Origin: Promethearchaeota archaeon
GTDB lineage: Archaea; Asgardarchaeota; Lokiarchaeia; Sigyniarchaeales; SOKP01
DNA: 64,000 bases
Direction: 5' to 3'
Assembly (NCBI GenBank): GCA_016839555.1
Contig: JAEOUA010000006.1
Span: forward strand, 160,001 to 224,000
Below are positions 6,142-27,139 of this stretch, piece by piece. The notes beneath the pieces are model-generated. The model saw only the letters and a program-made list of their open reading frames with translations, did not search any database and was not told the DNA's origin. The position numbers were made by a program, and so were the translations under genes. Within the stretch, counting starts at the first letter, position 1. The number at the start of each line of letters is the position of its first letter.

Positions 6142-6149
6142 GAATAAAA

Positions 6150-6555: not shown

Positions 6556-7329
6556 ATGTTATTTAAAGACAATTGGCAGGGAGAAGTTTATAGAATATTT
6601 TATGATTTTTTAAAAAGTAAAAAAGAAAAGATTCAAGAAATCTTTAATTGGGAAAGATATAAAGAGGAAAATCCTTTTCATGCCACTTTAATCGATGATC
6701 CTAAATTCTGGAAAGCATGTAAGATAGAAAGAAGTTTTGTAACAACTTTAGGACAATCAGTTTATGAAGATGTAGCCTTAGCAATTTCGAAATATGTATA
6801 TAAAAATGCTGAAAAAGGTTATACTTATACAAGTTCTATTGATAATGAAGTCTATAAAAAAATTAATATGGTAATTAGAGAATTATACGAGGGAAAGAGA
6901 AAGCCGAATTGGGAAAGTGAAGTAAATTTCATTAAACAATTTAAAAATAATAAAAACTCTAAAATTAATCTAAAAATTACTATGGATTTATATATAAATC
7001 AATTTAAAGATGGTTTACCTTTTTATGCTGAGATAAAATCTCCAAAACCAAATAAGGATCAATGTATGGAAACTAAGCTTAAATTATTAAGAGTTTTTTT
7101 TAGTGATGATTGGAGAGGAAACAACATTTTCTTTGCTTTTCCTTTCAATCCTTATATAACTCGTGATAATTATGATCATCCCCATATAAAAGCAATATTT
7201 GAAATTCCAAGAAGTTCTCGTTTATTAATGGGTGAAGAATTCTGGGATTTATTAGGGGGGAAAGGAACATTTAAAAGGATTCTCGAATTGGCAGATAAAG
7301 CAAGTGATGAGGTTAATTTATTGGAATAG
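6556..7329 (+). CDS. Type II restriction endonuclease, TdeIII/MjaII family
   Basis: NPFHATL, ERSFVTTLGQSVYE, MDLY, EIKSPKPNKDQ, FPFNPY and LMGEEFWDLLGG match my recollection of this family; adjacent MTases. Confidence 0.8.
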   Translation: MLFKDNWQGEVYRIFYDFLKSKKEKIQEIFNWERYKEENPFHATLIDDPKFWKACKIERSFVTTLGQSVYEDVALAISKYVYKNAEKGYTYTSSIDNEVYKKINMVIRELYEGKRKPNWESEVNFIKQFKNNKNSKINLKITMDLYINQFKDGLPFYAEIKSPKPNKDQCMETKLKLLRVFFSDDWRGNNIFFAFPFNPYITRDNYDHPHIKAIFEIPRSSRLLMGEEFWDLLGGKGTFKRILELADKASDEVNLLE

Positions 7330-7582: not shown

Positions 7583-10500
7583 TTAAAATGTATTCAATAA
7601 GTTTTCAGCTTTATCAATCCATTTTTTATCATTCACAGCTTCAGCTAGTTGTTTACCTTTTTCTATATTTTTCCGTGATTCTTCGAGAATCTTAAGTTCT
7701 TTATAGCACATACCCATTTTTATATAGGTCTCATACCTAAAATCTTCATCGAAGTAAAAAGTTGGGTCTTCTTCAATAAATTCTATGGCTTTTCCATATT
7801 GATGAATAGCCTTTTCAAATTCATTTGACCACATTAAAATTTCCCCAAAAGAATCATGATAAAATGCGTTTTTTGGGGTCTTATTTATCAAGCGTTTTAT
7901 TATTTTTAATGCTTCTTCTTTATTTTTCAATTTAGCTTTTATTCGCGCCTTATCCATTAAGTCTATATCTTTTTTATTTAATTCAATAGCTTTCTCAATG
8001 GCCTCAAGGGCTTCATCGTATCTTCCTAATTCAAACAAACAATCTTCCTTAATAATATAGGTATCATAATTATCTGGTAATAATTTATTTGATTTTTCAA
8101 TTGAATTCAAGGCTTCTTCATATCTTCCAAGGAATTTCAAGATATACGCTTTCATTATATAAGCATAGGGATCATCTGGTTCTAAATTAATTGCCTGATT
8201 CTCAATTTTTAATGCTTCTTCATATTTTTTCATTCTCCCATAAATTTCTGCCTTAATTTTATATGACAACGAAATACTTGGATTTAGATTAATAGAAATA
8301 TTAATTTCCTCCAATGCTTCTTGATATTTTTTTAAGCGTGCTAATGTTCTGCTTTTCATATTATGATAGTAATAAAAATTTGGTTCCGCATTAATCAAAT
8401 AATTTATTTCTTCCAAGGCGGCTACATTTTCTTCTATGATTTCAAAAGTTTCTGCTTTAATTTCATGTGAATAAAGTTCTTGACTATCTATTGAAATTGC
8501 TTCAACTATGATTTCTAATGATTCAGAAATTCTATCTAGCCATCGCAGGGCAATTGATTTCATTTGCAATCCATATATATAATTTTGATTTATTTCAAGC
8601 GCTTTTTCAGCATTTTCTAAGCTTTTTTCATATTCTTTTAATTCTATAAAAACTTGTGCTTTATATGCAAAAATATATTCATCATTTGGATGATCTTTAT
8701 TTATTTTTTCTAAATGCTGTTGAGCTTCATCAAAATATTTTTGTTCCATTAAAATATCTACATAGAATAATTGATAATCATAAGGTTCAGAACTTAAGTT
8801 AATTGCCTTCTTTATCAATTCTTTTGCTTTCTCTAACTCCCTCTTTTCATATAAAATGTAAGCTTTTTTAAGCAAAAATATTTCATTCCTTTTATCAAGT
8901 TCAATTGCTTTATCAATGGCTTCAAGAGCTTTATCTTTTTTGTCGATATTATTAAGGACCATTGCTTTATTTATGTATAATAATGGTTCTTTCTCATCAA
9001 TTTTTAATCCCTTCTCTACTGTTTTTAGCGCTATATCGTAATTATTCAGATTATCGCATAAAATCCTACTTTTATCAATATACAGACTTGTTTCTTTTGG
9101 ATTAATCTTAATTGCCTTATTAATAACTTGGATAGCACTATTGAATTTGCCTAGTTTCTCTAAATTTTCGTATTTTAAAGTAAGAATTAAATAATTTTCT
9201 GGATCTAGTTCTAATGCTTGATTTATAATTTTTAACGCGTCGCTAAAATTTCCCTTTTCAGTTAAAATATAGCTTTTCTTTAATAGGAGAAGAGAATTTT
9301 TATTATCTAATTTAATCGCTTGGTCTAAAGTTTCAATAGCTTTATTTAATTTATTTAAATTGAGTAAAATCATTGCTTTATTGATATAAAGAGCGATTTC
9401 ATTCTTATTTATATCAAGACCATTATTTACTGTAACCAAAGCTCGATCATAATCTTTGATGAAGTCGCATAACATTCTGCTTTTCATTACGTAATATTCT
9501 ATCTTATTTGGGTTTATATTAATAAATTCATTAATTTTATCAATATATTGTGTATATTTTCCTTTAGCTTCTAAGATTTCTAAAATATCATGATTTTGAT
9601 TCTCAATATTATTATATAAATTAATCTCTTCTCCAACTTTAAAAGATTGGCTCTCTTTTATTTTATTAATATCTCTTAATTTATTTGTAGGTATCTTTTT
9701 TACTTTCTTAAGAATTTCTTTCGATTGAACTGGACCTTTTTCCTTAACATTATTTCTCTCTTGAATAATTTTTTTTGACATATTCCAAATGTCAAAATTT
9801 CTACTATATTCTTTTCTGGTAAATTTTTCTTTTTCATAAATATCTCTATTTATATCCTTAATAATTATGTCTAATAGGTCATAGAGTGCCTCCTTTAAAT
9901 CTTTATGAAATAATTTATAATTTTGAATTAAGTCTGATAAAATATCTTTGTATAAATAGTCTAAACTTTCAGAATTTAACTCAATACAATCTAAATTATC
10001 AAGATAGTAATATCTTTTAAGATTTAATTTTAAAATATTAACAAAAAGATTTCCATATTCAGTATTTTCTCCAAAAAATAGGGGATTTTCTAATGTACTA
10101 GAATTAATTGTATAAACTCTTTTTTCATAGATTTTTTCTTTCAAAATTTTTTGTTTGAATAGTAACAAATCCGCCTCTGTTACATTATCTTCAATGCCTC
10201 TACCTTCTTCATGCATCTTTTTAATAAAATTTTCAACTGAAATAGTATATTTATTATAAAATTTTGGGTGATTATATACCAAATAAAGAAGAAGTTTATT
10301 AAATTTTCTCTCTGAAGGAAAGGTTTCTTGAAGTTTATCATGTGTTATTTTATTGACTAAATCTAAAAACTGCACTTTTATCTCCTCATCTTTAATTTTA
10401 AAATCATTAAAAAATTCTATTATTTTCTGAATATGTTGCTTTAATTTTTTCTGTTCTAATTTATTCAAGGAATTAAAATCTAAAGAATAGTTTTCTAGTC

Positions 10501-10783
10501 TTTTTAATAGTTCAGTCTCTCCTTTTGGTGTTATTTTATATTCACTATTTCTACCTACATAATAGCTAATGATTAAATCCTCTTTTAATAATTCCTTTGC
10601 ATATTTATGAAATGTATTTTTATTAATACGATTATTATTTTTTTTAGTAGTTATAAAGGTTTCACGTTTTAAAGGGCCAAAAACTGCGAGTGCATAAAGA
10701 ATCTCAACTTTATACCTATCACGATTAGTACTATTTCTAATCTTATTTGGAATCTTGTCTGGAATAATATTATTATTTTTCAT
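7583..10783 (-). CDS. Winged-helix DNA-binding protein with a long C-terminal TPR array
   Basis: N-terminal wHTH (NTFHKYAKELLKEDLI...YKITPKGE) and many 34-aa TPR units (e.g. KAYILKFLGRYEEALNSIEKSNKLLP) over the C-terminal ~650 aa. Confidence 0.85.
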   Translation of the reverse strand: MKNNNIIPDKIPNKIRNSTNRDRYKVEILYALAVFGPLKRETFITTKKNNNRINKNTFHKYAKELLKEDLIISYYVGRNSEYKITPKGETELLKRLENYSLDFNSLNKLEQKKLKQHIQKIIEFFNDFKIKDEEIKVQFLDLVNKITHDKLQETFPSERKFNKLLLYLVYNHPKFYNKYTISVENFIKKMHEEGRGIEDNVTEADLLLFKQKILKEKIYEKRVYTINSSTLENPLFFGENTEYGNLFVNILKLNLKRYYYLDNLDCIELNSESLDYLYKDILSDLIQNYKLFHKDLKEALYDLLDIIIKDINRDIYEKEKFTRKEYSRNFDIWNMSKKIIQERNNVKEKGPVQSKEILKKVKKIPTNKLRDINKIKESQSFKVGEEINLYNNIENQNHDILEILEAKGKYTQYIDKINEFININPNKIEYYVMKSRMLCDFIKDYDRALVTVNNGLDINKNEIALYINKAMILLNLNKLNKAIETLDQAIKLDNKNSLLLLKKSYILTEKGNFSDALKIINQALELDPENYLILTLKYENLEKLGKFNSAIQVINKAIKINPKETSLYIDKSRILCDNLNNYDIALKTVEKGLKIDEKEPLLYINKAMVLNNIDKKDKALEAIDKAIELDKRNEIFLLKKAYILYEKRELEKAKELIKKAINLSSEPYDYQLFYVDILMEQKYFDEAQQHLEKINKDHPNDEYIFAYKAQVFIELKEYEKSLENAEKALEINQNYIYGLQMKSIALRWLDRISESLEIIVEAISIDSQELYSHEIKAETFEIIEENVAALEEINYLINAEPNFYYYHNMKSRTLARLKKYQEALEEINISINLNPSISLSYKIKAEIYGRMKKYEEALKIENQAINLEPDDPYAYIMKAYILKFLGRYEEALNSIEKSNKLLPDNYDTYIIKEDCLFELGRYDEALEAIEKAIELNKKDIDLMDKARIKAKLKNKEEALKIIKRLINKTPKNAFYHDSFGEILMWSNEFEKAIHQYGKAIEFIEEDPTFYFDEDFRYETYIKMGMCYKELKILEESRKNIEKGKQLAEAVNDKKWIDKAENLLNTF

Positions 10784-10933: not shown

Positions 10934-12670
10934 ATGAATTATGCAAATTTTAGCAAATGGAAATATGAATCTTATTTAATTTCATTAGGATCAAAAAATA
11001 ATAAATTTGAAGAGCGAAAATTAAAATTAAGGTTTAGATTAATTGGAGTTCCTTCTAATCATGCTATTAAGGAATTTTTGGTTGAAACGAGTAACACTTT
11101 TGGTCAAATTAAGAGAAGTGTACAAAGAGAATATAGATTAAATCCCATAATTGATATTAATTTCATTTATAAAGGAAAAGTTTTACGAAATGATTTGAGA
11201 ATTTCTCAAATTGGTGATCCCAAAATAATAGATCCAATAACTATAATATGTATGAATTCAGGCGGAGCAAAAAGAGTTAGAGAAGATGAAGATGAAATTA
11301 AAAAATTAATTCACGTACTTAGTGAAAAAATAATACCATATCGGTTTCGGTGGATTTCGAGACGAGTAGAAAACAAATTTAAGGAACTTAGCGATAATAT
11401 TCCTCTTTTAAAACTAATATTTGCACATAAATTTGGAAGAGAATTAACATCTTTACTTGAAAATTTTTCTCATGGCCATAGATTTGACTTAAGTGATTTT
11501 CTCCATTATAATAATAAGTATGGAAATAATCCACATAAATTATTAGATCTTTTACTGGAGGATTTTATTAAGAATTACAATGAATATAATAGATATAGTG
11601 AATATAAAGATTTTAGGATTCTTATCTTTTCTACTTTACTAGAACTAATTCCATTAATTCCCATTAATGAGGAATCGGTTTTTTATGAAGCACTAAAACT
11701 TATAAATGACATTCAGATTGAAGAAAATGGAGAAATATTTCAAAAATTGTTAGAAATATTAAAAAATTCAAAAATTTCAATAGAAAAGAAGCTATTGACA
11801 TTTAATGTCATTGATAATAAAAATTTTGAAACATTACTTGATGATTTTAAATCATTTATATTAATGAATGATTTAGAATGTCCCTCAGAACTGAAGTTAG
11901 GTATTATAGACAGATTCGAAAGAGAAAATCCAAAATATTCTTCCATATTAGATAAAATAACTCCAAATCTGATTAAACTAATAGAACAAAATATTAATCC
12001 AGAATTAGAAAAAAAAATAAATAAAATTTTATTTAATCAGGGAATGATTTGCGGAAATTGTGGAAGAATTATCAATGAACATAAAAACTTTTCAGAAATT
12101 ACCTTTTGTGAAGTATGTAATAAAACTTTTTGTCAAGAGTGTATTGAAAATGAAGATCTTCTTAATGAATGTGAGTTTTGTAATAGATTTATCTGCAAAA
12201 CCCACGAGGAAGCATATAGCATAATTAATCTTGAAGAGAGAAATGTTGTTTTATGTGATATTTGTTTAGAAGAGAGGAAATATCAAAGTAATCAGATAAT
12301 ATGCAAATTATGCCAAAATAAAATCTTAAAATGCAGTAATGATGAATGTGAAATAAATATCTGTAGGAAACATCAAATTCGATGTGTTATTTGCGATAAA
12401 AGGTATTGTTCGAAATGTAAAGAAAAATTTATGAGAGCGTTTGATTTTGGATTAGCTTGTCATAAATGTGTTGAAACGGAAATTATAGAATGCGAAGAAT
12501 GCGGAATTGAAATAGTCAAAAATTATAATGCATATAGCTGTTCAGATTGTGGAAAATATTTATGCGAAGAACATATTTTCAGTGTACCTGATTGGGGCAA
12601 AAAATACTGTAAGGAATGTCTAGAAAATTGGAAGGAATATACATTTCGAATGCAAGCTTTTGGACATTAA
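10934..12670 (+). CDS. Ubiquitin-like domain (internal GG) fused to a helical region and a Cys/His-rich multi-zinc-finger domain
   Basis: aa ~28-111 is beta-grasp-like (LRFRLIGVP...TFGQIKRSVQREYRLNP..INFIYKGKVL...ITIICMNSGG). From aa 373 to the end there are about 16 CxxC/CxxH pairs. Confidence 0.75.
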   Translation: MNYANFSKWKYESYLISLGSKNNKFEERKLKLRFRLIGVPSNHAIKEFLVETSNTFGQIKRSVQREYRLNPIIDINFIYKGKVLRNDLRISQIGDPKIIDPITIICMNSGGAKRVREDEDEIKKLIHVLSEKIIPYRFRWISRRVENKFKELSDNIPLLKLIFAHKFGRELTSLLENFSHGHRFDLSDFLHYNNKYGNNPHKLLDLLLEDFIKNYNEYNRYSEYKDFRILIFSTLLELIPLIPINEESVFYEALKLINDIQIEENGEIFQKLLEILKNSKISIEKKLLTFNVIDNKNFETLLDDFKSFILMNDLECPSELKLGIIDRFERENPKYSSILDKITPNLIKLIEQNINPELEKKINKILFNQGMICGNCGRIINEHKNFSEITFCEVCNKTFCQECIENEDLLNECEFCNRFICKTHEEAYSIINLEERNVVLCDICLEERKYQSNQIICKLCQNKILKCSNDECEINICRKHQIRCVICDKRYCSKCKEKFMRAFDFGLACHKCVETEIIECEECGIEIVKNYNAYSCSDCGKYLCEEHIFSVPDWGKKYCKECLENWKEYTFRMQAFGH

Positions 12671-12714
12671 AATTTAAATTTATTAAAATTAATAAAAAAA
12701 AAGGTGAAATTATA

Positions 12715-13332
12715 ATGAATGAAGAAAAATATTCCGAGATTAAGGAGGATTTAAAAAATATAATTCATTCCTTAGTTGGATTGTGCCCTGCCTATAATTC
12801 AATAGTACGAATTCTGCGTGATGGTAATGAGAAATTTATAGGCTATGTAAAGGCGGCTTATCCTGAAATCCTAGATCGTGATATATTGTCTGTACTTCTT
12901 GGTTTGTTTGATGTTGAAACAGGAGAAACTTTATTGGTTAAGAGGAATGGAATAGGGGATAATCTAGTGGATTTAATCAATAAAATCGAGGAAAAACTTG
13001 ATAAGAAAGAAATAAGAGATTTAGTATCTGAATCGATGGGAGAGGGTGTTCCAAATCCTGTAAAGGATTATATTGAGGGATGCATTGATGTTCTTAAAAA
13101 GAATGATGAAATTGCTTTAAAATTAATAAAACTAATCGCGGCAGATGGTTGGTATAATTTAAATAATTTAATTGAAAAAGTAAATGAAACATATAAATTA
13201 AATTTTAATAATGAAGAAATTTTCAAACATTTGAAAAATCTAGAAGATTTAGGACTCCTTGAATCTCTGAATGAAAACAGAATCGAAATAATAAAGAAGT
13301 ATTGTGAGCATATTCTTAACCTAACAAAATAG
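12715..13332 (+). CDS. Hypothetical protein with C-terminal winged helix
   Basis: Likely start is ATG 12715 after AAGGTGA. The C-terminal EIFKHLKNLEDLGLLES is wHTH-like. Confidence 0.65.
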   Translation: MNEEKYSEIKEDLKNIIHSLVGLCPAYNSIVRILRDGNEKFIGYVKAAYPEILDRDILSVLLGLFDVETGETLLVKRNGIGDNLVDLINKIEEKLDKKEIRDLVSESMGEGVPNPVKDYIEGCIDVLKKNDEIALKLIKLIAADGWYNLNNLIEKVNETYKLNFNNEEIFKHLKNLEDLGLLESLNENRIEIIKKYCEHILNLTK

Positions 13333-13337
13333 AAGGT

Positions 13338-15314
13338 GTGAAAAAAATCCAAAATCTTAAAAAAAAGCCTATAATAAATAAAAGAAAAAAATTAAATAGA
13401 GAAAAAAGTAATAGATTACAAACTAAAGAGGATAATACAAGTTTAAATGAGGGAAATCAATTAGAAATTAAGCAATTAATACTAAAAAAGCAATCCCCTT
13501 TATTTAAACAGAATGAACATAATTTAATAGAGAAATCGAGAAAACTTAAATACAATAGTTTATCTAATGATAAAATATTTAAAAGGCTCAATAATGAAAA
13601 AAAAGTAGGAGAAGTTTTAAAACCGGTTAAAATTGAATCTGTAAAAAAATTTATTACTAATGATATTGAGGAAAGAAAAGAAGATTTTTTCTTTGAAAAG
13701 AAAAAACCAGAATTTAGAAAATTTAAAAAATCCAATACTAAAACATCTCTTTCAAGATTTATTCATCGAAATCACTTTAAATTTGAAAAATTAAATGAAA
13801 ATATAAATACCCAACTAATTAAATTCCATATGGGAAAAAAATTCTCTTTCAAACCAGAGTTAAAAGTGATAAAAAGAAGTAATATTAATTTAATACCTTC
13901 ATTTCAAGACAGTGAAAAAAATGATAAAAACATTTTAAGGAATAGAGGAATAAGTATGAATAGTGATGATAATACTGGAGTTAGAAAAGAATCAAAAAAG
14001 GAAATAAAAGAAAAATCTAGAAAAAAAGATAATATTAAGAAAAAATCTAATGAATTTGGTGATATCCAAGATAATGGAGAAGATGATTTATTTAATAAAA
14101 TATTTCATAGCAATATTCAAGGTTTTCCAAAAGTTTTGGATTCAGAAGGTCCCTATTTAATATTAGTTGGAGTTAGAAAAAATATTAAAGTCACAGACAC
14201 CCTTCAAATACTTTTAAAAAAGATATATCGAAATGTTGTTGGAGGGAAACCAGATCCAGAAAATATTGGAGATAAAGAGGATTTAAGGGATAATGGTGCC
14301 AAAGCAGGTAGAAATATAATTCTTCTAAATGAAGAATTATTCAAGCAAAAGACCTATGAAAATTATAAGGATCCTTTAAATATTAAAACGAATCTTTTAG
14401 ATGAAGAATGGATTCTAAAAAAATTAGATGAAAATTATAGCCAGAGTTTCGGATTTCTCATACTCGAAGTTCCATTTGATATTCTTGTAAAAGCATATAA
14501 AAGCTTAACCAAAAATATCCGAAAAATTAAACCTTCTCGGATAATATTATTAAGACCATTAAATAAATATACTCTGGAAGAATTGAATTTAACAACTAAC
14601 GAATTAGAAGGAAAAACAGATAAAAAAGATCCTATTACTAAAATAAGGAATTTTTCTAAAGCTCTTCATGGTTTTATTGTACCAAAAGAGGATAAAAAAT
14701 GGCAAAAGGGTAAAACATTTGATGACATTTTTCTAAGCTGTAGAAATGAAGAAGATCTCTTTAAGAAGAAGTTAAAGGAAAAATTTTCAATAAAAGTAAA
14801 TGGTAAAAATATTCCCATCGAAAGACTAGTTAAAATTTCACCAAGAGAGAAACTAAAAGATTTTAAAAAAGAAAGTGAATTACATTTTTTCTTAAAAACC
14901 ATTCTTGTTAGATATTATTATGAAATTAAATGTTTAGAACTTGATCAGGTAAAAACAGAATATGAAACGCCATTAGCAAATGATTCTGATAACGAGATAA
15001 TACCTGATATTGAAATTAAAGAAAAAAATAAAGTTATTGAAGTTGAAACATTATACGGAACGGTTAATCCTATAGGAAAAATCACAGAAACAATAGAAAA
15101 ATATAAAAAAAGAAAATTTTACAAAATAAATGTAATTTTAACCAATTATGACATGTTCTTCTATTACAAGTTCATAAAGAATATAAAGGAATTCTATAAT
15201 AAAGAGGGCTATAAAATTGATTTTATGACTTTCAATTTTTCAAAAAGAAAGATTGATTTAATAGGAATAAATGAATTTAAAAAGAAATTTAATAATGATA
15301 ATGAGTTAAAATAA
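13338..15314 (+). CDS. Large protein with low-complexity basic N-terminus and C-terminal PD-(D/E)xK-like nuclease domain
   Basis: ESELHFFLK...VKTEY...IIPDIEI...VIEVETL (E-x-E variant). GTG start after GAAGG, 5 nt after the upstream stop. Confidence 0.6.
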   Translation: MKKIQNLKKKPIINKRKKLNREKSNRLQTKEDNTSLNEGNQLEIKQLILKKQSPLFKQNEHNLIEKSRKLKYNSLSNDKIFKRLNNEKKVGEVLKPVKIESVKKFITNDIEERKEDFFFEKKKPEFRKFKKSNTKTSLSRFIHRNHFKFEKLNENINTQLIKFHMGKKFSFKPELKVIKRSNINLIPSFQDSEKNDKNILRNRGISMNSDDNTGVRKESKKEIKEKSRKKDNIKKKSNEFGDIQDNGEDDLFNKIFHSNIQGFPKVLDSEGPYLILVGVRKNIKVTDTLQILLKKIYRNVVGGKPDPENIGDKEDLRDNGAKAGRNIILLNEELFKQKTYENYKDPLNIKTNLLDEEWILKKLDENYSQSFGFLILEVPFDILVKAYKSLTKNIRKIKPSRIILLRPLNKYTLEELNLTTNELEGKTDKKDPITKIRNFSKALHGFIVPKEDKKWQKGKTFDDIFLSCRNEEDLFKKKLKEKFSIKVNGKNIPIERLVKISPREKLKDFKKESELHFFLKTILVRYYYEIKCLELDQVKTEYETPLANDSDNEIIPDIEIKEKNKVIEVETLYGTVNPIGKITETIEKYKKRKFYKINVILTNYDMFFYYKFIKNIKEFYNKEGYKIDFMTFNFSKRKIDLIGINEFKKKFNNDNELK

Positions 15315-15316
15315 AA

Positions 15317-16465
15317 GTGATTAGATTGTCTATTGGAAATAACATAGAAAAAATTTTAAATGATAAAGAAAGCGAAATTGTTGAATTTAAAGCATCATTT
15401 AAATGGGATATAGAGAAAAAAGAAATTAATAATAACCTTCTTGATGAAGTATCTGAAACGGTGGCAGCTTTCATGAATTCAAGAGGAGGTAATTTATTTA
15501 TTGGAATTAAGGATAATGGCGAAATCTATGGATTAGCAAATGATATAAAACATTGTTTTCAAAAAAGCGTTGATGTACTACAACAAAATGTCCCTCAATC
15601 AATAAAAGATAATTTAGGAGGAGCTGGTACGAATTATACAATGGATATTGAAAAATATGAAGGTAAAAAAATATGTATAATTAAGGTTAGTCCATCCGAT
15701 GAACCAATTTTTTTTCAAAACCGTGATTTCTATGTTAGAAGAGGAACATCAGACTATAAATTAAATTCTAAAGAAACATATGAATATATCAAAATTCGAT
15801 TTCTAGAATATAAAAAGTTGAGGTATGAGATCCCCAAAGTAATTAATCCTTTTGATGAAAGAATCGATATAATTCTGAAAATCATTAAAAATTATGTTAT
15901 AGAATATTATTTAAGCGGTCTTATAGGAAATTTTGATCGCTCAATTAATAAAGAAATTTTTAATTTAACAAAAATTATAAATAAATTTGATTCTTCTTAT
16001 TTACCAGAATTTATCAGATTACCAAATAATAAACCTAATTATCAATATCTTTCAAATCTTTTTTTTAATTGTAGTGCTAATGATTTAAAGTTAATGTTAA
16101 GTAATAAAGAAATTGAAAAAGACAAAATTAAAAGAAGTATTTATTTACTCTCTGGAGATTTAGCATATATGATTTTTGAAAATTATAAAAAACATTTGGA
16201 AAAGACTGTATTTTCTCTAAAAAAAATACATCGTCTCTTTGTTTTTGAAACAGAAAATAATGAATATTTTAAAGAAAGAATTAGTCTAATTAAATTTAAA
16301 GAAGCTTTAAAAATCCTCAAAGAATATGGATTAATAAGTCTTTATGGTGAGGAATATAAAGGAAATAGCTCAGAAACGGAATTACATATATTAGATAAGT
16401 TAAGATTAAAGGATTATGTACGGCAGAGTTCGATTTCTTTCCTAATTAACAAAAAGCGAGATTAA
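15317..16465 (+). CDS. Schlafen/AlbA_2-domain protein with C-terminal extension
   Basis: ESEIVEFKAS, VAAFMNSRGGNLFIGIKDNG, FYVRRGTS; starts 2 nt after the upstream stop. Confidence 0.85.
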   Translation: MIRLSIGNNIEKILNDKESEIVEFKASFKWDIEKKEINNNLLDEVSETVAAFMNSRGGNLFIGIKDNGEIYGLANDIKHCFQKSVDVLQQNVPQSIKDNLGGAGTNYTMDIEKYEGKKICIIKVSPSDEPIFFQNRDFYVRRGTSDYKLNSKETYEYIKIRFLEYKKLRYEIPKVINPFDERIDIILKIIKNYVIEYYLSGLIGNFDRSINKEIFNLTKIINKFDSSYLPEFIRLPNNKPNYQYLSNLFFNCSANDLKLMLSNKEIEKDKIKRSIYLLSGDLAYMIFENYKKHLEKTVFSLKKIHRLFVFETENNEYFKERISLIKFKEALKILKEYGLISLYGEEYKGNSSETELHILDKLRLKDYVRQSSISFLINKKRD

Positions 16466-16569: not shown

Positions 16570-19500
16570 TTAAGTATGGTATCGAAATTTTATCCTTAAT
16601 TTATCTTTATTCATATAAAAATTCAATTCTTTCTCATTATTGCAATAATCAAGCGCAAATCGCCGAATTTTTGCCGCCGTTTGCATTAATTCTTTATCAT
16701 TGGGAATGTAAGTCAAGAAATTCTTGCTACAAATCAGAATGAATTTCGCCCGCGCCCGTGAGCTCAGCACATTGAACCGATTCAAATTGTAAATGAACTC
16801 CTCCTCGCTTAAAAGTTGATCTTGAGCGGAAATGCCAATAGAAGTGATAATGAAATCCCGAGCGGAGCCTTGAAATTTTTCCACCGAGTAAATAGTCTTT
16901 TTCAGCAATTCCATTAATTCTCGTTCCCCAAGCGCGTTGAGGTCATAATCATTCAAAATTTGATGAAGTTGTCTGATAATTAAGCGTCCTTGAGCATTAT
17001 GAGGCGCCACCACACCGAGTTTCTCCGTCCAAAACATTCGCTGAATATTCCTTAATTCTTTTTCAAAAGCTTTCGATTTTTCCGGTATATTCATTAAATA
17101 ATACCCCAAAACCAGTTGAATAACGATATAAGCCTCGAGAGGACTAACTGCAGTTTCATATTTGTTCTGATGGATAATAGATTCCACAGCAATTCCCTTA
17201 TCCAATACATCAAGCACCCAGCTCTCTATTTTGGGCTCTTTCCCAGCAGCGATCCAATCTTGAAGGCGGTGAAAATCGCCCTCAATCGTTTTATCTTTAT
17301 TCGTTAATGGCGCAATATCGCGTTCATATATGTCCATATAATTTGTAAAGTCCACGATGTCTTGATGGCTTCTATAGTTGATTTGTAATTGGTCGTTAGG
17401 GATGCGATGATTATCCGCATAAAAACCAAAGAGATTATCCAGAATGGGCTCAAGTTTTTTCGGCGGAAGGACTTGCTGTACAGGAGGTAATTGATTTTGG
17501 TCGCCCACAATTACTAATTTAGTTAACTCATCAACATCGGGGCTTCTTTTAGTTTCTTTAGAGACTAAATATAATTCATTTAATTTCTCGATATCAGAAA
17601 TTTGTTGACCAGAGGCCGCCGATAAATCTTTAGACATAATTTCGACACCGAAATTTTTAACATATAGAAGTGCAGACATAATCTGATTAACTGGCACTTG
17701 CGAGCTTTCATCTACAACAATAAGGTCAAATGCAAATCCCAAATTAATAAAGCTTAGTTTACCATATCTCTTCTTTTTTAAATCAAACAATTGATGCGCA
17801 TTGGTAAAAAGGATGAGATTTTCATTATGTGGCGCTAAGATATCATAAGATTTTTTATCGCTTTCATGAGTAATTTCCGCGAATACCTTAGCTCCAGCAC
17901 CATTTATTTGTCTCATCTCTAGAGTTTTTTTATCTTTAAAATACGCATCATAAAGCGTTTTTGAACCGTGTAAGGAGGGTGGTTCTTGATCTCTGGAGTG
18001 AAGAAAGACGAGTTGAGCCTTCGCAGCTTCGGTTAAATTTCCCGTATTGTCTAAACTATTAAAAATCGTTTCAAAGACTACCCGAAGAGCTGCATAAGAA
18101 AACGCCATAACCAGCACTTTCACGGGCCCTCTATTTTTTTCCTTTTGTCTATGAATATATTCATCGATAAGCATAGCAATGGTTTGGGTTTTTCCGGTTC
18201 CGGGAGGCCCTTGAATCCCATAGATGGTATACTTCATTGCGTTAAGGATGGCTTGTTCTTGGGAGGCATCGGGAGGTGGAGAAATCGGTGTTAATAATTT
18301 TTTAGGAGTATAAGAATAGGAGGGTAGCAGATTCGGGGCATAGAGATAGACCTCGGGCAGCCTTCCTTCGTAGGGGAACGGATCTGGGTACTCCAAGGCA
18401 GTCTTTTGAGTCATATTCCATTTAAACGCCAATATTTTTCCCAGCCAAGATTCTCCAAAATTTTCTCTTAATAGCAATTTTTCTAATCTTTGAGCCCACG
18501 GATTTGATTCATAAGAATACAAATAAAAAGTATCATCAATAAGAATTCGCTCCCCAAGTTGTACTAAAGCTTGCCTTTTGTTTCGAAGATCTATTATTTT
18601 TTGAGAAATTTTATTAACTAAGGAGTAATCTTGAAGATAAGGCGACTGTTCCTCGAGCTCCTGGATATAATTATCCAACAAATCAGTACTCCAGGTTTGA
18701 GTTCTAACCTGCCAGTGATTATTATCCCAATTCAAATCTTCAATCACAATTCTCCATTTATAATTTTTATAGCTGGGAGCATCTCGTAACATTTCTGGTA
18801 CGCAGATTACCCATGCTCCCTCATCAATTTTCACATTTGAAGACATTCCACCAAGTTCAAACTCATAAAAATACCCATTATATCCCCCGTAGCTACCACT
18901 TCCACTTGTCTCAGGAATCTGCCAGATACCATTGATTTTGGCCGATTTTAATTTTCCTACACCATAAGTGGGATACATACATCGAATGTTATCAAGTTCA
19001 AACTCATTATAGGCAGTCGTATAATGTTCAAATAAATACCAAATTTGCGCAATATTGTGATATGATTCAGGTAATTCATAATCGAAAAAATCTTCCATCG
19101 CCCGTGGCTTATTATATCCCAAAAGATAAGATTTCCCATGCTGTTGAAAAACTTGCCTTAACTTATCAAGCGTTCGCACTTTTTTTATCATCTGTTTCTT
19201 TAATTCGCTGAGAAGTGTTGCCTTTTTTTGGCCGTCATTATATAAGTAGCGATACCATTGCTGGAAATCAATAAAATTGAAATGGCGGTTCCAGAAAACC
19301 TCGTAGAAGATTTGCTCTTTATACCCAAATATGGGTTGATATTTTGGTATTTTAGATAGATATTTCGCCAGTTCATGCCAAGTATAATTAATAATCAAAG
19401 GAAAACTCATGGTGGTTTCGGCAAATGCTCTGAGATTAAAGAACTTCTTATGATGATAAGGATGCTTTACGTTCGATTCCGAGGGATTGAACCATCGAAG

Positions 19501-21387
19501 GATATATAATGTCTTTCTGCGTAGCGCAGGACTATCATTTAAGTAATCCAAATTTCGCTCCAGAAATTCTTCTAAATATTCTATTTGTTCTTGAGACCAA
19601 TAATAAATGGCACAATTGAGAGATTTCCCGTCCACTTCGGTGAACCATTCCAAATTTTGGATAAAGATCAGTATTGCATATAAGAGCGAAATTACTTCTT
19701 CTGAGAATTTATTCTCATCCTCTTGAGTAAGTCCTGTATTGACAAGAGAAAAATCTAGTTCAAGAGTACTATAATGCATTTTTCCGCCACTAGAAGCCTT
19801 TTTCAACTGTAGCCAGGGACGATCCTTATTTTTATGCATTTTAAATAGAAATGTCAGAGCAGAAGCAAATCTATTGAGTGAATGTATGACCCGCTTTTCT
19901 ACATTATCCTCTTCAATCCCATCGATGTTGAATTGAGTTAATATCTGATTCTGTATATAGTCCAAGTTATTCGTATCTTCAAAAAATTTATTCCATAGAG
20001 TCCACCATCTCACGAATTTATCATATTGGTTCAAATAATCTGAAACAAAACAGTTTAAATTAAAGGATACCGCGCAGACAACATCGTGGATGGGATCCGT
20101 TTCAAAGTCGAGGATTAAAGAGATCGGGCTATATTTTGGGATGGATATAGAATAAATTTCTCCAATCTTTGGGCTGAGAGGTTTATTTTCTAAGAGCGCC
20201 TGTGCTCGTTGTTTTAGAAAAGGTTTTTCCGCATAGAGAGGGGTGGGAACAATATTTTTTGGGTGTGCATCGATTTTATCAGCCACATCTTTAATAGTCT
20301 CATATATAGGGGCTTGACAATCTTTTAATTGTTCTGAAATAGTTTTTGAAGTATAAGGGATCAGTTGGAGGTCCCATTGGTCTCGAGGATAACAGTCATC
20401 GCATTTCAGCGTTTTTTTACAATCTTCTAAATAGGGGCATCTGGCGCAGATTGATTGGAGATTAAGCGGAATCTCCTCTATACTGCACGGAATTTCCTCT
20501 TTAAATTCCCGGAGTTTATTGGAAAGCGACTCATACAGAATAATGGTGTCTTTAAACGGCATCTTCACGATTTTTCGGCGGATCTCAGAGATACCGAGTT
20601 TCATTTGCTTAACTTTAGTATATCGGGGAAAAATGCCATTTTCATCAACGCGTACGAAAAATTTATCATCTAACCCGTGAATGTGTAAGAAATGATTGAA
20701 GGCCATAAAATAAAAGAGAATTTCGAAAAAATACTTCTTTCCGATACTATCCGGCCGAGACAGCTTGACATCGATGATTGATATGCCGACTCTTGTATCC
20801 AACTCTTTTTCTGGTACTTCTCTGATGGTACCGTCAGCCAATAACTCTCTAATTTGTTCTTTTTCCTTGAACTTTACCTTCGAAAATCTGGTTGCTTCTA
20901 CTTTTTTATTTCCTATTAATAAAAGGTCTGGTCGAAGCGTTTCCGAATAATCAGTAGGTATTTCTTCGCCAGGAGAAAGTTGAAAAAATTCCCAGATAAA
21001 TTGCTCGGGTGTCTCAAAATCATATTCAATAAGACATAATTCTTGGTCTGTGCCATCAACTATTATTTTTTCATATAGCTTTATAAAGAAATCAGGTGTT
21101 AACTGTGGCCCTTTTAAAACATCCCAAGGAGCTTTCTGGAGCACTTTATTCTTATTATTTGGAAAGATAGTATCATAAACTTCATTCTCGTAATTTCTAC
21201 CTAGTTTGATAATGAGTGCGCCTATTTTTTCACGCTCCAAAGGTTCAACTTCGCGATATGGGTGAATCCAAGAGCTATCATTCTTTCCAAGATTCAGAAA
21301 GAGCTGCCGTTCGCAGTTAGATTCCAAATAATCTCCGAGATTTTGCTTATTCAAATGATTTTTAGTCATCTGATATGATAATATCAA
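16570..21387 (-). CDS. Fe-S RecB/Cas4-like nuclease + RNase H-like domain + SF1B (Dna2/UPF1-like) helicase
   Basis: SNCERQL plus CARCPYLEDC (4-Cys staple); RPDLL, IDVKL, EILFY; ILDFETDP; QGPPGTGKT, DESSQ, VGDQNQLPP, NYRSH, VAPHNAQ, SVEKFQG, RFNVLSSRAR. The start may be ATG 21369. Confidence 0.88.
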   Translation of the reverse strand: MILSYQMTKNHLNKQNLGDYLESNCERQLFLNLGKNDSSWIHPYREVEPLEREKIGALIIKLGRNYENEVYDTIFPNNKNKVLQKAPWDVLKGPQLTPDFFIKLYEKIIVDGTDQELCLIEYDFETPEQFIWEFFQLSPGEEIPTDYSETLRPDLLLIGNKKVEATRFSKVKFKEKEQIRELLADGTIREVPEKELDTRVGISIIDVKLSRPDSIGKKYFFEILFYFMAFNHFLHIHGLDDKFFVRVDENGIFPRYTKVKQMKLGISEIRRKIVKMPFKDTIILYESLSNKLREFKEEIPCSIEEIPLNLQSICARCPYLEDCKKTLKCDDCYPRDQWDLQLIPYTSKTISEQLKDCQAPIYETIKDVADKIDAHPKNIVPTPLYAEKPFLKQRAQALLENKPLSPKIGEIYSISIPKYSPISLILDFETDPIHDVVCAVSFNLNCFVSDYLNQYDKFVRWWTLWNKFFEDTNNLDYIQNQILTQFNIDGIEEDNVEKRVIHSLNRFASALTFLFKMHKNKDRPWLQLKKASSGGKMHYSTLELDFSLVNTGLTQEDENKFSEEVISLLYAILIFIQNLEWFTEVDGKSLNCAIYYWSQEQIEYLEEFLERNLDYLNDSPALRRKTLYILRWFNPSESNVKHPYHHKKFFNLRAFAETTMSFPLIINYTWHELAKYLSKIPKYQPIFGYKEQIFYEVFWNRHFNFIDFQQWYRYLYNDGQKKATLLSELKKQMIKKVRTLDKLRQVFQQHGKSYLLGYNKPRAMEDFFDYELPESYHNIAQIWYLFEHYTTAYNEFELDNIRCMYPTYGVGKLKSAKINGIWQIPETSGSGSYGGYNGYFYEFELGGMSSNVKIDEGAWVICVPEMLRDAPSYKNYKWRIVIEDLNWDNNHWQVRTQTWSTDLLDNYIQELEEQSPYLQDYSLVNKISQKIIDLRNKRQALVQLGERILIDDTFYLYSYESNPWAQRLEKLLLRENFGESWLGKILAFKWNMTQKTALEYPDPFPYEGRLPEVYLYAPNLLPSYSYTPKKLLTPISPPPDASQEQAILNAMKYTIYGIQGPPGTGKTQTIAMLIDEYIHRQKEKNRGPVKVLVMAFSYAALRVVFETIFNSLDNTGNLTEAAKAQLVFLHSRDQEPPSLHGSKTLYDAYFKDKKTLEMRQINGAGAKVFAEITHESDKKSYDILAPHNENLILFTNAHQLFDLKKKRYGKLSFINLGFAFDLIVVDESSQVPVNQIMSALLYVKNFGVEIMSKDLSAASGQQISDIEKLNELYLVSKETKRSPDVDELTKLVIVGDQNQLPPVQQVLPPKKLEPILDNLFGFYADNHRIPNDQLQINYRSHQDIVDFTNYMDIYERDIAPLTNKDKTIEGDFHRLQDWIAAGKEPKIESWVLDVLDKGIAVESIIHQNKYETAVSPLEAYIVIQLVLGYYLMNIPEKSKAFEKELRNIQRMFWTEKLGVVAPHNAQGRLIIRQLHQILNDYDLNALGERELMELLKKTIYSVEKFQGSARDFIITSIGISAQDQLLSEEEFIYNLNRFNVLSSRARAKFILICSKNFLTYIPNDKELMQTAAKIRRFALDYCNNEKELNFYMNKDKLRIKFRYHT

Positions 21388-21704
21388 TTAAAATTATTAA
21401 ATTAAGTGGTTTAACCATTAAAGTGAAATCTTACTAAAATTATTAAATAGATAATATGAATATAATATTTAAGTTAAAGGAATTTCAGCTCTTTTAGATA
21501 AAATTAATTTTTGTATATGACCAAACTTTATTATATTTTTTAAAATATTTTAAGAATCTCTCTTAGATTTATTTTTTTTTGAAATAAACTATTTCTCCTC
21601 CTCGAATAATTACGACAAAATTCAGAAAACCTTCACTCTACATAATTTTAAACCTTGAATCAAATAATTCTTTAAAGAAAAAAAACATAGAAAAAAGTGA
21701 TTTT

Positions 21705-24440
21705 TTGAAGAAATATAAAATTGCTGACAAAAGATGTAATATATGTGGAGGTCTTATTTCATGGGATGATTACCCAAATCCAAAATTGCCTATTCATGTT
21801 GATAATAAAGGATATAAAATTGGAGATGGAGATTGCCATTATTATCTAAAAGAGGATTATAATCATTTTTCAACCCAAAAATTTCATAGATTTGGAAGTA
21901 ATGGTAAATTAAATCTTTTTGAGTCATATATACCTCATATAACACGATTTTTAATTGGAAAAATAGATAAGAAAATTAATGTTATAACATATTTAATCAA
22001 AATTCCAGATAAGACTGAAAAAGATGAATTATATAGAAATATAAACAAAATAACAAGATTATTATTCGATAATAATGAAATAATTTCATTTTTTAAAATA
22101 ATTCCTGAGATTTCAGAAGAAGAAAAAAAGAAATTTGTTACCATTAATATTTTAAATAATTTATCCATAAATAATGAGGAACTTCAAAAAATTATTAATA
22201 CCCACTTAAATTCTAACTTAAAAATAGTCAATAGCTCAGAAGAAATAATAAATTTAGAGGATAATCTCGATGAATTAAAAACTTTTTTCGATTCAATTTT
22301 TTATGAACTTAGATTTAAATTTAAGAAAGATAATATTGAACCTTATGTTCGTTATTTCTATGATATTACTGAAGAAAAAATCTTGTTTTATGTAGATATA
22401 GACGTTGGTTATCCTTTAGAAAGTTCAAAGCCAATTTCTAAGGATGAAATAGGAAAAAGAGTCTTAGGAAAAAGTCGGTTTAATATTAATAAAAAATACA
22501 TATTAAGAGAAATTACTACAACTTCTATTTCAGAACACTTAAATTCTGAAGAGTATAGAAATTCTTTTATACCATTTATTCAGAATACATTCTTTAAAGC
22601 AGGAAAACCTAAGAAGCGGAAAGATGGAAAAAATTGGACTATATACGACTTATGGACAGAAATAAATGAAATTAAGCTAGATAGAAATGATAATATAGCA
22701 ATAGTCTCAGTAGGAACAGATTTTCGAGCAAAGAAATTCTTTTTTCCCAAATCAAGATTATTTATTCCTAAACCATACATTCCAGAAAAGACTGAGAGAG
22801 CAAACGATATCCAAAAAGTAAAAGAAGAATTATATAAAATGTTAAAGCAGAGACAAGAGATTTTGGAAAAATTAAAAACTTCACTAAAAATTATTCTTCT
22901 TGAAGAAGTAATTCCCAGATATTATGATCTTATGAAGTTTCCCTTCGAAATTGAGTTTAAAAATAAAATTTTTAATTTACAAAGAAAAGAAGATGACAAA
23001 TATTATTTAAATTATATACCTCAAGAACTATTAAAGTCTGATTATTTACCTCTTGCGGGAAAATTTGAGTTTGCTATTTTGTCAATACTACCCAAAAATC
23101 TTACTAAAAAGGAACAAAACTATTTCGAAAGTTTTGAAGCAAGCCTTAAAGAAGAATTAATTAATTATAATTTAGCTAGTAATGTAAAGATTGAAAATCC
23201 AATTAAATATACATTTAATTCTGAAAGTATCATTAATAATGAAAGAAATGTTTGGGCAGATAATTTTAATAAAGAAATAGCTCCTAAACTAATAAGATAT
23301 AATGAGGAAATTAAAGACTCCTCTAAAATTGTGATCTTATTATTAGGTTTAAAAGAGCTGCATACTGCTTCGAAAATTTTCAAAAGAGAAATGGAGAATT
23401 ATTTTTATAATTTATTAAAATCCAAGTTAAGTTCTTTACACTTCAGTGTCGTTCAAGGAATAAAATATGATAAAAAGAGTCCAAAAACAAAGTCACAAAA
23501 GGCAACTATGTTTTATAGAAATTGCCTCCAAAATATAGCAGCTAATAATCCAAAAAGTGATATAGCTAAAAAAATAAGGAAAGGACTTATTTTTACAAAA
23601 AAGAGACCTTTTGGAACTTTAGAAATGGAAAAAATTGAAGAATCTGTGGATATGATCGCTGGATTCGATGCCTCAAAAGCTGAGCATGCAGAATTTTCTA
23701 CTCCAAGAGGAGCCACTATTACTATGATAGATCCTTACGGAAGGCAAATAAAAACAGGTTATATTGAAAATGCTCTTACTAATGCGGGAGTGATAAGTGA
23801 AAAAGCTGTACGAGATATAATTATTGATACTTTAAATATTCAGAAAAATTTACTAAGGGAGAGTTATGAGAGTTCAAATAAAAATGTTAAAAAAAATACA
23901 TTAGATTATTTTATTTATAAAAATCCAGATATTCAAAAAAAGATTTTATTTGTTTATGACGGAAAATTCTACCAAAAACAAATTTCCTCTTTTATTACGA
24001 TTTATAGAGAATTGAAAAAGAAATATTCAATAATGCCTGAAATTTATTTATTTGAAATTTTAAAATCTCATCCGATTAGAAATTATTTATACAAAGATAA
24101 TAAGGTTGAAAATATTCCATTCGGAACTTTAGCTATTTTGAATGAAAAAGAAATACTTCTAACTAGCCATATTTTACCTAATAAAAAATATATGGTTAAT
24201 TCTTGCCTTTATAGATTTAAAATGTTACTTACTAATAAAGAACAAACCGATGTAGTTTATCAGATTACAGAAAAAGAGCTTTTAAAGGTTGGAATAAAAT
24301 TATTTCAAACCTCCTTATTCAACACAGGAAAAAGTGGTAGGCCTCTCAAAGAAACAAAAGTAATACATGAAAGTCATAAATTGTCTAAAGAATATTCTGA
24401 AAAACCCGATTCTATTGGAATTTTACATTACAAGGATTAA
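21705..24440 (+). CDS. ago: Long prokaryotic (Asgard-type) Argonaute, N-PAZ-MID-PIWI, with N-terminal Zn-binding extension
   Basis: PIWI: IAGFDAS (D655), ILFVYDGKF (D752), LFEILKSHP, IPFGTL, RPLKETKVIHESHKL (H891). MID: Y568/K572/Q584. PAZ-like region ending FFFPKSRL. Length 911 aa. Confidence 0.85.
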   Translation: MKKYKIADKRCNICGGLISWDDYPNPKLPIHVDNKGYKIGDGDCHYYLKEDYNHFSTQKFHRFGSNGKLNLFESYIPHITRFLIGKIDKKINVITYLIKIPDKTEKDELYRNINKITRLLFDNNEIISFFKIIPEISEEEKKKFVTINILNNLSINNEELQKIINTHLNSNLKIVNSSEEIINLEDNLDELKTFFDSIFYELRFKFKKDNIEPYVRYFYDITEEKILFYVDIDVGYPLESSKPISKDEIGKRVLGKSRFNINKKYILREITTTSISEHLNSEEYRNSFIPFIQNTFFKAGKPKKRKDGKNWTIYDLWTEINEIKLDRNDNIAIVSVGTDFRAKKFFFPKSRLFIPKPYIPEKTERANDIQKVKEELYKMLKQRQEILEKLKTSLKIILLEEVIPRYYDLMKFPFEIEFKNKIFNLQRKEDDKYYLNYIPQELLKSDYLPLAGKFEFAILSILPKNLTKKEQNYFESFEASLKEELINYNLASNVKIENPIKYTFNSESIINNERNVWADNFNKEIAPKLIRYNEEIKDSSKIVILLLGLKELHTASKIFKREMENYFYNLLKSKLSSLHFSVVQGIKYDKKSPKTKSQKATMFYRNCLQNIAANNPKSDIAKKIRKGLIFTKKRPFGTLEMEKIEESVDMIAGFDASKAEHAEFSTPRGATITMIDPYGRQIKTGYIENALTNAGVISEKAVRDIIIDTLNIQKNLLRESYESSNKNVKKNTLDYFIYKNPDIQKKILFVYDGKFYQKQISSFITIYRELKKKYSIMPEIYLFEILKSHPIRNYLYKDNKVENIPFGTLAILNEKEILLTSHILPNKKYMVNSCLYRFKMLLTNKEQTDVVYQITEKELLKVGIKLFQTSLFNTGKSGRPLKETKVIHESHKLSKEYSEKPDSIGILHYKD

Positions 24441-24470
24441 GCGTCTTTTAAAAAACAAATTTAGAGATAA

Positions 24471-24740
24471 ATGGAACGAAAAGATTTTGAAAAGAGAAAA
24501 AGGATAGTAATTAAGAATGGTTTGAGTAATATAAAAGCTTTAAAGGAAACTTTTGAAAAATTAAGAGAAATAAACTGGTATGAAAATTGGGAATATCCCA
24601 ATGAATATAGAAAGGTTAATGGTACTAAACTTGATCCAATAGACATAGATCATTTATTTGATAAAATAGAATTAATAATATTCGAACTCACAAAATTTCC
24701 ACGAAAACTTAGATTATTATGGGAAGTAGGATTAAAATAA
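24471..24740 (+). CDS. Small hypothetical protein downstream of Argonaute
   Basis: 89-aa ORF 30 nt after the Ago stop, same strand. Confidence 0.55.
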   Translation: MERKDFEKRKRIVIKNGLSNIKALKETFEKLREINWYENWEYPNEYRKVNGTKLDPIDIDHLFDKIELIIFELTKFPRKLRLLWEVGLK

Positions 24741-25894: not shown

Positions 25895-27139
25895 TTAATC
25901 CTTAAGCATAATTTTATTTTCATCAACTTTTTTTAGAAATTCTATCAAAATTCTATAGCAATTCCAGAGGTTTTGAAAATCCAATTTATCGATGGTATCA
26001 TCTGTGGTGTGATAGTGTGTCGCAAATCCTTCTTTTGGCGACCCTACGAGTGAGCAACACGTAATATTATTTCGCGAATATGCCATAGAATCTGTGTAGC
26101 CCGAAACATTACCTATTGTATGTGAAACATCTAAATCTGTCGCGATTTTGGACAGTTCTTCGCCGAGGGTTCGGGAAAGAGGAACTAATGAGTATAATTC
26201 TCTAATATCTATTTTCTGAGTAGAATCCCTGCCACCGACCATATCAATATTAACCACAAGTGCATCTTTCAATTCAGCAAAATGTTTTTTGGAAAAGCGT
26301 TTACTCCCTCGATCTCCAATCTCCTCACAGCCATGTGAAACTAGCCAAACTTCTGTAGTTTCTAATCCTCCTAAGGTGTTCAAGTGCTTCGCAAGTTCAA
26401 AAATAATAGCGATAGATGTTAAATTGTCATCTGCGCCCATAACCGGTGTATGTGAAACGCATTTAATTATTGTATAAATGAGGAGAGGGATTAGAGCCGT
26501 CAAAATTAAAAGGAGACTTAAATCAACTGCGGGGACAAATAGGAACGAAATTTCAAATACATATAGTATTATTTTCAAGATGTAAATTCCAAGCAAAAGA
26601 AAGCTCAACATAACTGGGATTCCCATTATTGTAGTGAAACGCTTCGGCCACCGTTTTAGAATTGGAAATTCCCAATTAGAATCATGATGCCCTCCGATTA
26701 AAACGGTGTGTTTAACTGCTTTTTTTGGTGTAAATCTCCCATATACATTAGTGGATTCTTTTGTTTTAAAAAGCGGATCGATGAATTCGATATTGCGCAA
26801 TAGATTTGTTTGAATAACGATGAATGAGATCACCATCAATATCAATGAAAATAATAGAGGGATGAGATTAGGATAAAAAAAGTAAATCCAATATAAGACG
26901 GTAGTAAGTATTATATTTACCATTGAAATACGATATGTAGCTCGATAGGAGCCTGGATGGCAATAAAAATGTTCTATAGTTGCATCATCAGTATACTTTT
27001 TAAAGGTTTCTAAGATAAATGTGGCGCATTCTGCTTCTTGGATACTACATGGCGGTCTGGGACCAATCGTATCACATATGATTTGGATTGTGTTTTGCAT
27101 TGAATCTTTAATCTCTTCTTTTCCATTCAAAAGATACAT
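25895..27139 (-). CDS. M28-family membrane metallopeptidase (copy 1)
   Basis: GGHHDS, GADDN, GCEEIG, NIDMVG, YHTTDD; four TM segments. The true start is probably TTG 27130 after GGAGG. Confidence 0.85.
   Translation of the reverse strand: MYLLNGKEEIKDSMQNTIQIICDTIGPRPPCSIQEAECATFILETFKKYTDDATIEHFYCHPGSYRATYRISMVNIILTTVLYWIYFFYPNLIPLLFSLILMVISFIVIQTNLLRNIEFIDPLFKTKESTNVYGRFTPKKAVKHTVLIGGHHDSNWEFPILKRWPKRFTTIMGIPVMLSFLLLGIYILKIILYVFEISFLFVPAVDLSLLLILTALIPLLIYTIIKCVSHTPVMGADDNLTSIAIIFELAKHLNTLGGLETTEVWLVSHGCEEIGDRGSKRFSKKHFAELKDALVVNIDMVGGRDSTQKIDIRELYSLVPLSRTLGEELSKIATDLDVSHTIGNVSGYTDSMAYSRNNITCCSLVGSPKEGFATHYHTTDDTIDKLDFQNLWNCYRILIEFLKKVDENKIMLKD

Follow-up and report, generated by a model that had tools for sequence, protein, structure and literature searches.

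A divergent Lokiarchaeial Argonaute family encoded beside Dna2-like nuclease-helicases and other DNA end-resection genes

The window, as we call the whole stretch of 64,000 nucleotides of Lokiarchaeial DNA that was analysed, contains a long Argonaute (Ago) gene and a nuclease-helicase gene in head-to-head orientation (Table 1). The original prediction, made from the sequence alone, had described a 911-aa Argonaute, a 1605-aa helicase, a small ORF trailing the Ago gene and a 317-bp AT-rich spacer, all of which are present. The helicase frame opens at a TTG codon; the downstream ATG is the start used in the gene call of the collection and in the homologues. The small ORF lies 30 bp 3' of the Ago gene and was rejected as part of a conserved module, since no homologue occurs at any fetched locus. 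The names carried by homologues indicate a host in Lokiarchaeia/Promethearchaeota. TATA-like hexamers in the spacer are as expected at 19% GC. Metagenomic contigs of two sediment samples, both belonging to a single study, cover the helicase, spacer and Ago with zero differences (17367-23726 and 17903-24028); one of the samples may be the source sample. Because these contigs cross the junction without a difference, it is not an assembly join, and misassembly at this point is ruled out.

Table 1 Features of the Argonaute and nuclease-helicase locus (positions within the window)
Feature	Position	Strand	Remarks
Dna2/Bad-like nuclease-helicase, clade W	16570..21387	-	1605 aa from TTG; likely 1599 aa from ATG 21369
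SF1B (UPF1/Dna2-like) helicase core	16723..18270	-	Pfam AAA_11/AAA_12; intact Walker A K1060, Walker B D1220-E1221
DnaQ/RNase H-like 3'-5' exonuclease fold, residues about 411-795	18985..20139	-	Z 10.8 to polymerase B exonuclease domains
Cas4/RecB-type PD-(D/E)xK nuclease	20380..21369	-	Z 9.3 to Cas4 7mi4; RecB motifs and cysteines
Spacer between divergent helicase and Ago genes	21388..21704	.	317 bp, 18.6% GC; junction bridged by contigs from two samples
Divergent long Argonaute, 911 aa	21705..24440	+	Fold and putative tetrad D655-E699-D752-H891; MID pocket candidates Y568, K572, Q584
N-terminal CxxC-H-C module on Ago	21735..21836	+	Present in every full-length operon-clade Ago and in L092; lacking in L080, L079, L078, L070
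89-aa orphan ORF	24471..24740	+	No homologue at fetched loci or elsewhere in genome; no family or Atlas match

The two genes differ sharply in composition. GC is 0.368 in the helicase and 0.254 in the Ago, and GC3 is 0.349 and 0.171, which places them at the 98th and 4th percentiles of the genome, respectively; a GC3 jump of this size occurs in 0.5% of the genome's 619 adjacent gene pairs. The caveat attached to the prediction, that the difference in GC might mean chance adjacency, gains weight from this step and from the position of the window helicase outside the operon clade described below. No transposon-marking repeats were found around the window helicase.

The expected setting among defence genes is also present, with two type II methyltransferases, a TdeIII-type restriction endonuclease and a Schlafen AlbA_2 gene nearby. 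The methyltransferases and the endonuclease form a type II restriction-modification cluster at 3388-7329. The Schlafen gene is the last of four close-set plus-strand genes (10934-16465), preceded by a ubiquitin-like/zinc-finger protein, a winged-helix protein and a 658-aa protein of no assigned family; this run is divergent from a gene for a TPR protein at 7583-10783. Further out lie a 443-aa protein with a DUF6932/nucleotidyltransferase-like domain (1406-2737) and, 6937 bp apart, a pair of paralogues (25895-27139 and 32832-34067) that are ~84% alike over the aligned stretch and appear by eye to be of the peptidase M28 type.

Pfam Piwi, PADLOC, NCBIfam and PDB sequence searches with the window Ago returned no match. 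Its language-model features point to Piwi clusters, and a structure model built on 20 relatives (pLDDT 70.8) matches CpAgo in Foldseek with an E value of 8e-23 over 895 columns. VIA-align scored this model over residues 64-909 at a Z of about 16-17 against PIWI, CtAgo, HrAgo1 and CbAgo alike. The N-PAZ-MID-PIWI fold is thus present over the whole length of the predicted model, and the fold match together with the D-E-D-H tetrad bears out the identity originally proposed for this gene. The DEDX tetrad was assigned by motif position and alignment, and its residues are kept across the family, the last being D in L078. Candidate residues occupy three positions of the MID 5'-phosphate pocket, and the fourth is apparently N614, not the canonical K. 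Judged by these residues, the family is predicted to consist of catalytically intact long Argonautes. The N-terminal CxxC-H-C module precedes the N domain and has free-standing copies in other Lokiarchaeial proteins.

The Ago family is rare. Among 400 Asgard genomes, one has a full-length copy; beyond this, a fragment and a distant split copy were found. Word-based protein searches, even with a profile, recovered a single relative, and the family was found by a full HMM scan and pattern scans. Many metagenomic copies are interrupted or shortened by an internal stop, a frameshift or loss of the N-terminal half (L077, L079, L082, L085, L096, L099, and L101), which suggests frequent loss. A distant member, P0135, is the only one that matches a Piwi or PADLOC pAgo profile. 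Profile comparison shows no similarity between the window Ago and the canonical Ago in genome G044, and no Ago or helicase loci were found in the genome-contig and viral-contig collections scanned.

The 1599/1605-aa protein is predicted from its motifs and modelled folds to have a Dna2/Bad design, with a Cas4 nuclease, a DnaQ-like fold and an SF1B helicase in one chain. Residues 1-330 fold as Cas4 in VIA-align; the 1+3 iron-staple cysteines (C19, C308, C311, and C317 in the 1599-aa numbering) span this domain, and they and the putative catalytic residues (E115, D148, D200, and K202) are invariant or nearly so among 70 helicase homologues. Foldseek on the N-terminal half gave no match at E 0.001, and the folds were obtained with VIA-align. 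The best PDB match of the helicase core is DNA2 (E 9e-21), with UPF1 close (E 1e-18). Folds, motifs, and Pfam matches therefore confirm the domains of the original prediction, namely a putative Fe-S nuclease, an RNase H-like fold and a UPF1-type helicase. The further proposal that one polypeptide unwinds, cuts and trims is only partly upheld: the motor and nuclease motifs are intact, but the acidic motif of the presumed trimming domain (D421-x-E423-x-D425) is complete only in clade W, to which the window helicase belongs. Trimming by this domain would not be general, because its first Asp is lost in the Ago-operon clade.

Several known families were considered for this protein. It is not a eukaryote-type Dna2 orthologue, as the Pfam Dna2 domain is absent at E 0.1 and a DnaQ-like insert of about 380 aa is present. 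A PADLOC match to Mokosh MkoA (E 1e-24) covers the helicase core only, no MkoB-like partner adjoins, and this assignment was rejected. The TM0106-family RecB-like nucleases, which we take to have a domain order similar to that of the Asgard family, are represented by TIGR03491, which does not match P0003 or P0042 at E 0.1. The helicase family is common in Lokiarchaeia and occurs in 50 of the 400 Asgard genomes.

At seven other loci (L077, L081, L091, L093, L094, L095, and L106) the helicase gene lies immediately 5' of an Ago gene on the same strand, with stop-to-start overlaps or gaps of at most 16 nt. These loci represent five lineages, with Agos 55-67% identical, and the Dna2-like helicase is the commonest partner of the Ago family (five of about nine informative lineages). 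Pairwise identities of helicase and Ago co-vary (Mantel r=0.96, the best of 120 permutations) and the GC of each operon helicase agrees with that of its Ago to within 0.03, indicating that the unit is inherited whole. In the tree, the operon helicases group as a single clade (SH-aLRT 100) that lies within the Mre11-Rad50-linked helicases, suggesting that the Ago took over its enzyme from an Mre11-Rad50 operon. A blind look-up from helicase P0042 found a 915-aa Ago 16 nt downstream; one from helicase P0043 found no Ago, and the same locus type in G244 also has none. Operon-clade helicases L105 and L137 are without an Ago, and Agos L078 and L092 are without such a helicase in the flank covered. 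A functional link between the two families is very probable. The Ago-helicase link of the original prediction thus stands for the families, which are associated beyond chance by the seven-locus tandem operon and its co-divergence, but the window helicase itself falls outside the operon clade. Viewed from the helicase side, most loci have no Ago.

All 27 other Lokiarchaeial helicase loci with flanking sequence, outside two special clades, have an adjoining Mre11-like gene, and a Rad50-like gene adjoins as well wherever the contig reaches. The genes are directly tandem at 24 of these loci, separated by an intervening gene at two and head-to-head at one. At L067:3-8073, the helicase and Mre11-Rad50 are arranged head-to-head around an AT-rich gap of about 330 bases, as the two genes of the window pair are. 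NurA-HerA-Mre11-Rad50 operons are headed by two further Agos, L080 (the sister of the window Ago, 50%) and L070 (20% identical). With the Dna2-like operon and these NurA-HerA-Mre11-Rad50 operons, the Ago family repeatedly keeps company with DNA end-resection machines, and the two machines are unrelated to each other.

Lokiarchaeia have a conserved operon in which the gene of the Dna2-like helicase stands with Mre11-like and Rad50-like genes (G000:C1:158302-169933 (L065), L046-L068, and L138-L143); it is trailed by a second Rad50-like gene in the window's genome and three relatives. In the window's genome, the helicase of this helicase-Mre11-Rad50-Rad50 operon on C1 is sister to the operon clade. 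In the same genome, a 580-aa gene precedes a NurA-Mre11-Rad50 cluster (G000:C11:21017-27373), and a second NurA gene lies at C11:56606-57883. The Ago-headed NurA-HerA-Mre11-Rad50 operons are located at L080:10001-21909, where UvrD is also present, and at L070:2054-11826. L080, L070, and L078 have in common a divergent P-loop/HTH gene (about 360 aa), and at L096:11520-14571 NurA-like and HerA-like genes are convergent to a truncated Ago.

The window's own pair has a different history. Its helicase is 36-38% identical to those of the operon clade, and the AU test rejects a tree that unites every Ago-linked helicase in a single clade (p=0.0008), which rules out co-inheritance of the pair from the tandem operon. 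It belongs instead to the distinct clade W, whose genes are solo and share no neighbours with one another. None of six clade-W sisters (48-64%) is accompanied by an Ago within the flank covered, which at one of them is only 293 bp upstream, and no neighbour of theirs recurs in the window. The separate helicase clade and the GC3 contrast suggest that the pair was formed by a separate event, which was probably recent. The two window genes are divergent and hence not co-transcribed. Complex prediction with Ago residues 400-911 and helicase residues 1-410 gave a score of 0.00, which counts neither for nor against pairing.

As an explanation of the whole, we lean towards an Ago that works with an adjoining DNA end-resection machine, the window representing a second, recent joining. 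A rare and mobile family of Lokiarchaeial long Agos would work with whichever such machine is encoded alongside, in the main arrangement a Dna2/Bad-like enzyme taken from the helicase-Mre11-Rad50 operon. The enzyme would load onto a broken or free end of invading DNA, its SF1B motor would travel 5'-3', and the Fe-S Cas4 domain would cleave the strand being threaded, yielding ssDNA fragments with 5' phosphates. Loaded with these as guides, the Ago would slice matching DNA and create new ends. The Dna2-like enzyme would thus fill the role that RecBCD/AddAB has for bacterial pAgos, and in the window the same two families would have been joined head-to-head by the second event. Studied systems offer precedents: CbAgo guides depend on RecBCD-processed ends (10.1101/2020.03.01.971358), ACE1, a Cas4-family nuclease, produces and trims the guides of its partner pAgo (PMC12094033), and Bad combines an Fe-S ssDNA endonuclease with a 5'-3' helicase (PMC7430649). 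We consider guide supply the likelier main role of the helicase for the Ago. The neighbourhood data fit guide-making and target unwinding alike. More tentatively, and with some doubt on our part, the Ago family may have been coupled three times to end-resection machines (NurA-HerA-Mre11-Rad50, the Mre11-Rad50-derived Dna2-like enzyme, and clade W), with the Dna2-like enzyme as a dedicated guide factory. This would be the first defined guide-biogenesis route for an archaeal DNA-guided Ago, derived from the Asgard counterpart of MRN-Dna2.

For the window itself, since its helicase lies outside the operon clade, the pairing may be a recent re-pairing or due to chance. A mobile solo clade-W helicase could have landed in a defence island at a place where related Agos have a divergent regulator-like gene, leaving the family operon real and the window Ago working alone or fed from afar by other resection genes of the genome. 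This is a serious possibility, though not the one we prefer. It is consistent with the different helicase clade, the Ago-free surroundings of the six sisters, the sharp GC step and the divergent layout, and the operon on C1 and the NurA-Mre11-Rad50 cluster on C11 are available as other feeders. However, it requires that the neighbour happen to be the commonest partner of the Ago family, in a genome with just two copies of the helicase among some thousands of genes, and a head-to-head partner layout is also found in L067. A coincidental neighbour that is exactly the family's usual partner is unlikely, and we incline to the view that the window's own pair is functional.

Three other readings concern what the enzyme does. 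It could act after targeting in a Cas3-like manner, opening dsDNA for the Ago or degrading the invader processively from the Ago cut. The same family linkage fits this role, tight operon coupling would suit a stoichiometric pair, and according to PMC9071414 mesophilic pAgos cut dsDNA poorly and are helped by a helicase. We nevertheless regard it as rather unlikely, as the Ago retains its own tetrad and its alternative partner, NurA-HerA-Mre11-Rad50, is an end-processing machine; this role and guide supply are not mutually exclusive. Chromosome maintenance (break repair, or fork or terminus processing) in place of immunity appears improbable for a family that is full length in 1 of 400 Asgard genomes, often broken (L077, L079, L082, L085, L096, and L099) and found beside restriction-modification genes as defence genes are, even though the default partners of the helicase family are Mre11-Rad50 and, according to PMC10269773, some pAgos aid completion of replication. 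The original prediction had gone further and suggested an archaeal counterpart of the MOV10/Armitage/SDE3 partnership, which as an RNA pathway would have the helicase feed RNA precursors to the Ago, as with PIWI and MOV10L1/Armitage. The motor does belong to the UPF1-like family (UPF1 E 1e-18 vs DNA2 9e-21), the structural scores of the window Ago do not separate PIWI from pAgo, and the RNA-guided HrAgo1 exists in Lokiarchaeia (PMC11217426). Yet an Fe-S Cas4 nuclease is fused ahead of the motor, the Ago lacks profile similarity to the canonical Ago of G044, and a non-exhaustive look at these loci revealed neither RNase III nor a Zucchini-like gene. Every recurring partner is a DNA-end enzyme, which makes this the least supported of the rivals and a very improbable one; the Dna2/Bad design and the Mre11-Rad50 and NurA-HerA-Mre11-Rad50 partners point to DNA ends.

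The Asgard pair resembles APACE1 and RecBCD-fed pAgos in its presumed working and is a member of neither. As in APACE1, a cyanobacterial long-A pAgo with ACE1 (PMC12094033), an intact long pAgo is co-encoded with an Fe-S Cas4-family nuclease that is the proposed guide maker or trimmer. ACE1, however, is small and has no helicase. In the Asgard protein, which is about 1500-1600 aa long, the Cas4 domain is instead joined in one chain with a DnaQ-like domain and an SF1B motor; the host also differs in being an Asgard archaeon, and the Ago has diverged beyond the reach of Piwi profiles. Membership was rejected because the nuclease is not stand-alone and the window genes are divergent rather than in an operon. 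CbAgo with RecBCD/AddAB (10.1101/2020.03.01.971358) likewise has a resection helicase-nuclease at DNA ends as inferred guide source, but there the enzyme is unlinked and housekeeping, while here it is a dedicated, co-inherited single chain in the Ago operon. The window helicase fits the definition of DNA2-like enzymes in PMC7430649. In it, as in Bad and eukaryotic DNA2, an iron-staple nuclease of the RecB family is fused with an SF1B helicase that forms the C-terminal part, and Bad also has a central extra domain; DNA2 differs in being without the central DnaQ-like fold, and Bad in adjoining a methyltransferase rather than an Ago or Mre11-Rad50. The rnc-ago-helicase locus of HrAgo1 (PMC11217426) also places a Lokiarchaeial long Ago beside a helicase with proposed guide supply, although that helicase is a DExD/H (SF2) enzyme found with RNase III and HrAgo1 is RNA-guided and PIWI-like; NurA, Mre11, Rad50, and Dna2 go unmentioned in that paper. 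Operons of pAgos with unspecified helicases and nucleases have been listed earlier (10.1101/366930). Our literature search, which had incomplete coverage, turned up no description of an Ago operon that includes either a Dna2-like enzyme or NurA-HerA. The association of MOV10L1, Armitage, and SDE3 with PIWI/AGO is comparable in having a UPF1-like SF1B motor (the shared core only), and differs from the DNA-resection context of the Asgard loci. These three are RNA helicases and are not known to carry a Cas4 nuclease.

The source of guides for pAgos in cells without RecBCD/AddAB has been stated as open (PMC12094033), and this covers archaea. The helicase-Ago operon suggests how archaeal Agos may obtain their putative DNA guides, and its significance is carried more by the family-level operon than by the window locus. 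Because the operon consists of two genes with intact active sites, the guide question can be addressed by direct experiment, either in vitro or in E. coli. Since the family is invisible to Pfam, PADLOC, and NCBIfam-type profiles, Asgard Ago surveys based on these would miss it. Such a system would link immunity in Asgard archaea, the closest relatives of eukaryotes, to a repair machine made up of Dna2-like and Mre11-Rad50 components, and a self-feeding Ago with its own motor could aid programmable dsDNA cutting.

The genes flanking the operons also recur. A divergent HFX_2341-like gene precedes the helicase-Ago operon at L091:3931-5396, L106:1486-2906, L093:1-753, and L094:1-477, and may regulate it; in L091 and L106 it is followed by an NT5C 5'-nucleotidase gene. 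Restriction-modification genes of the Eco57I/MmeI type recur beside the Ago at L081, L094, L095, L106, L080, and L077, those of L095 and L077 being assigned by position and size only.
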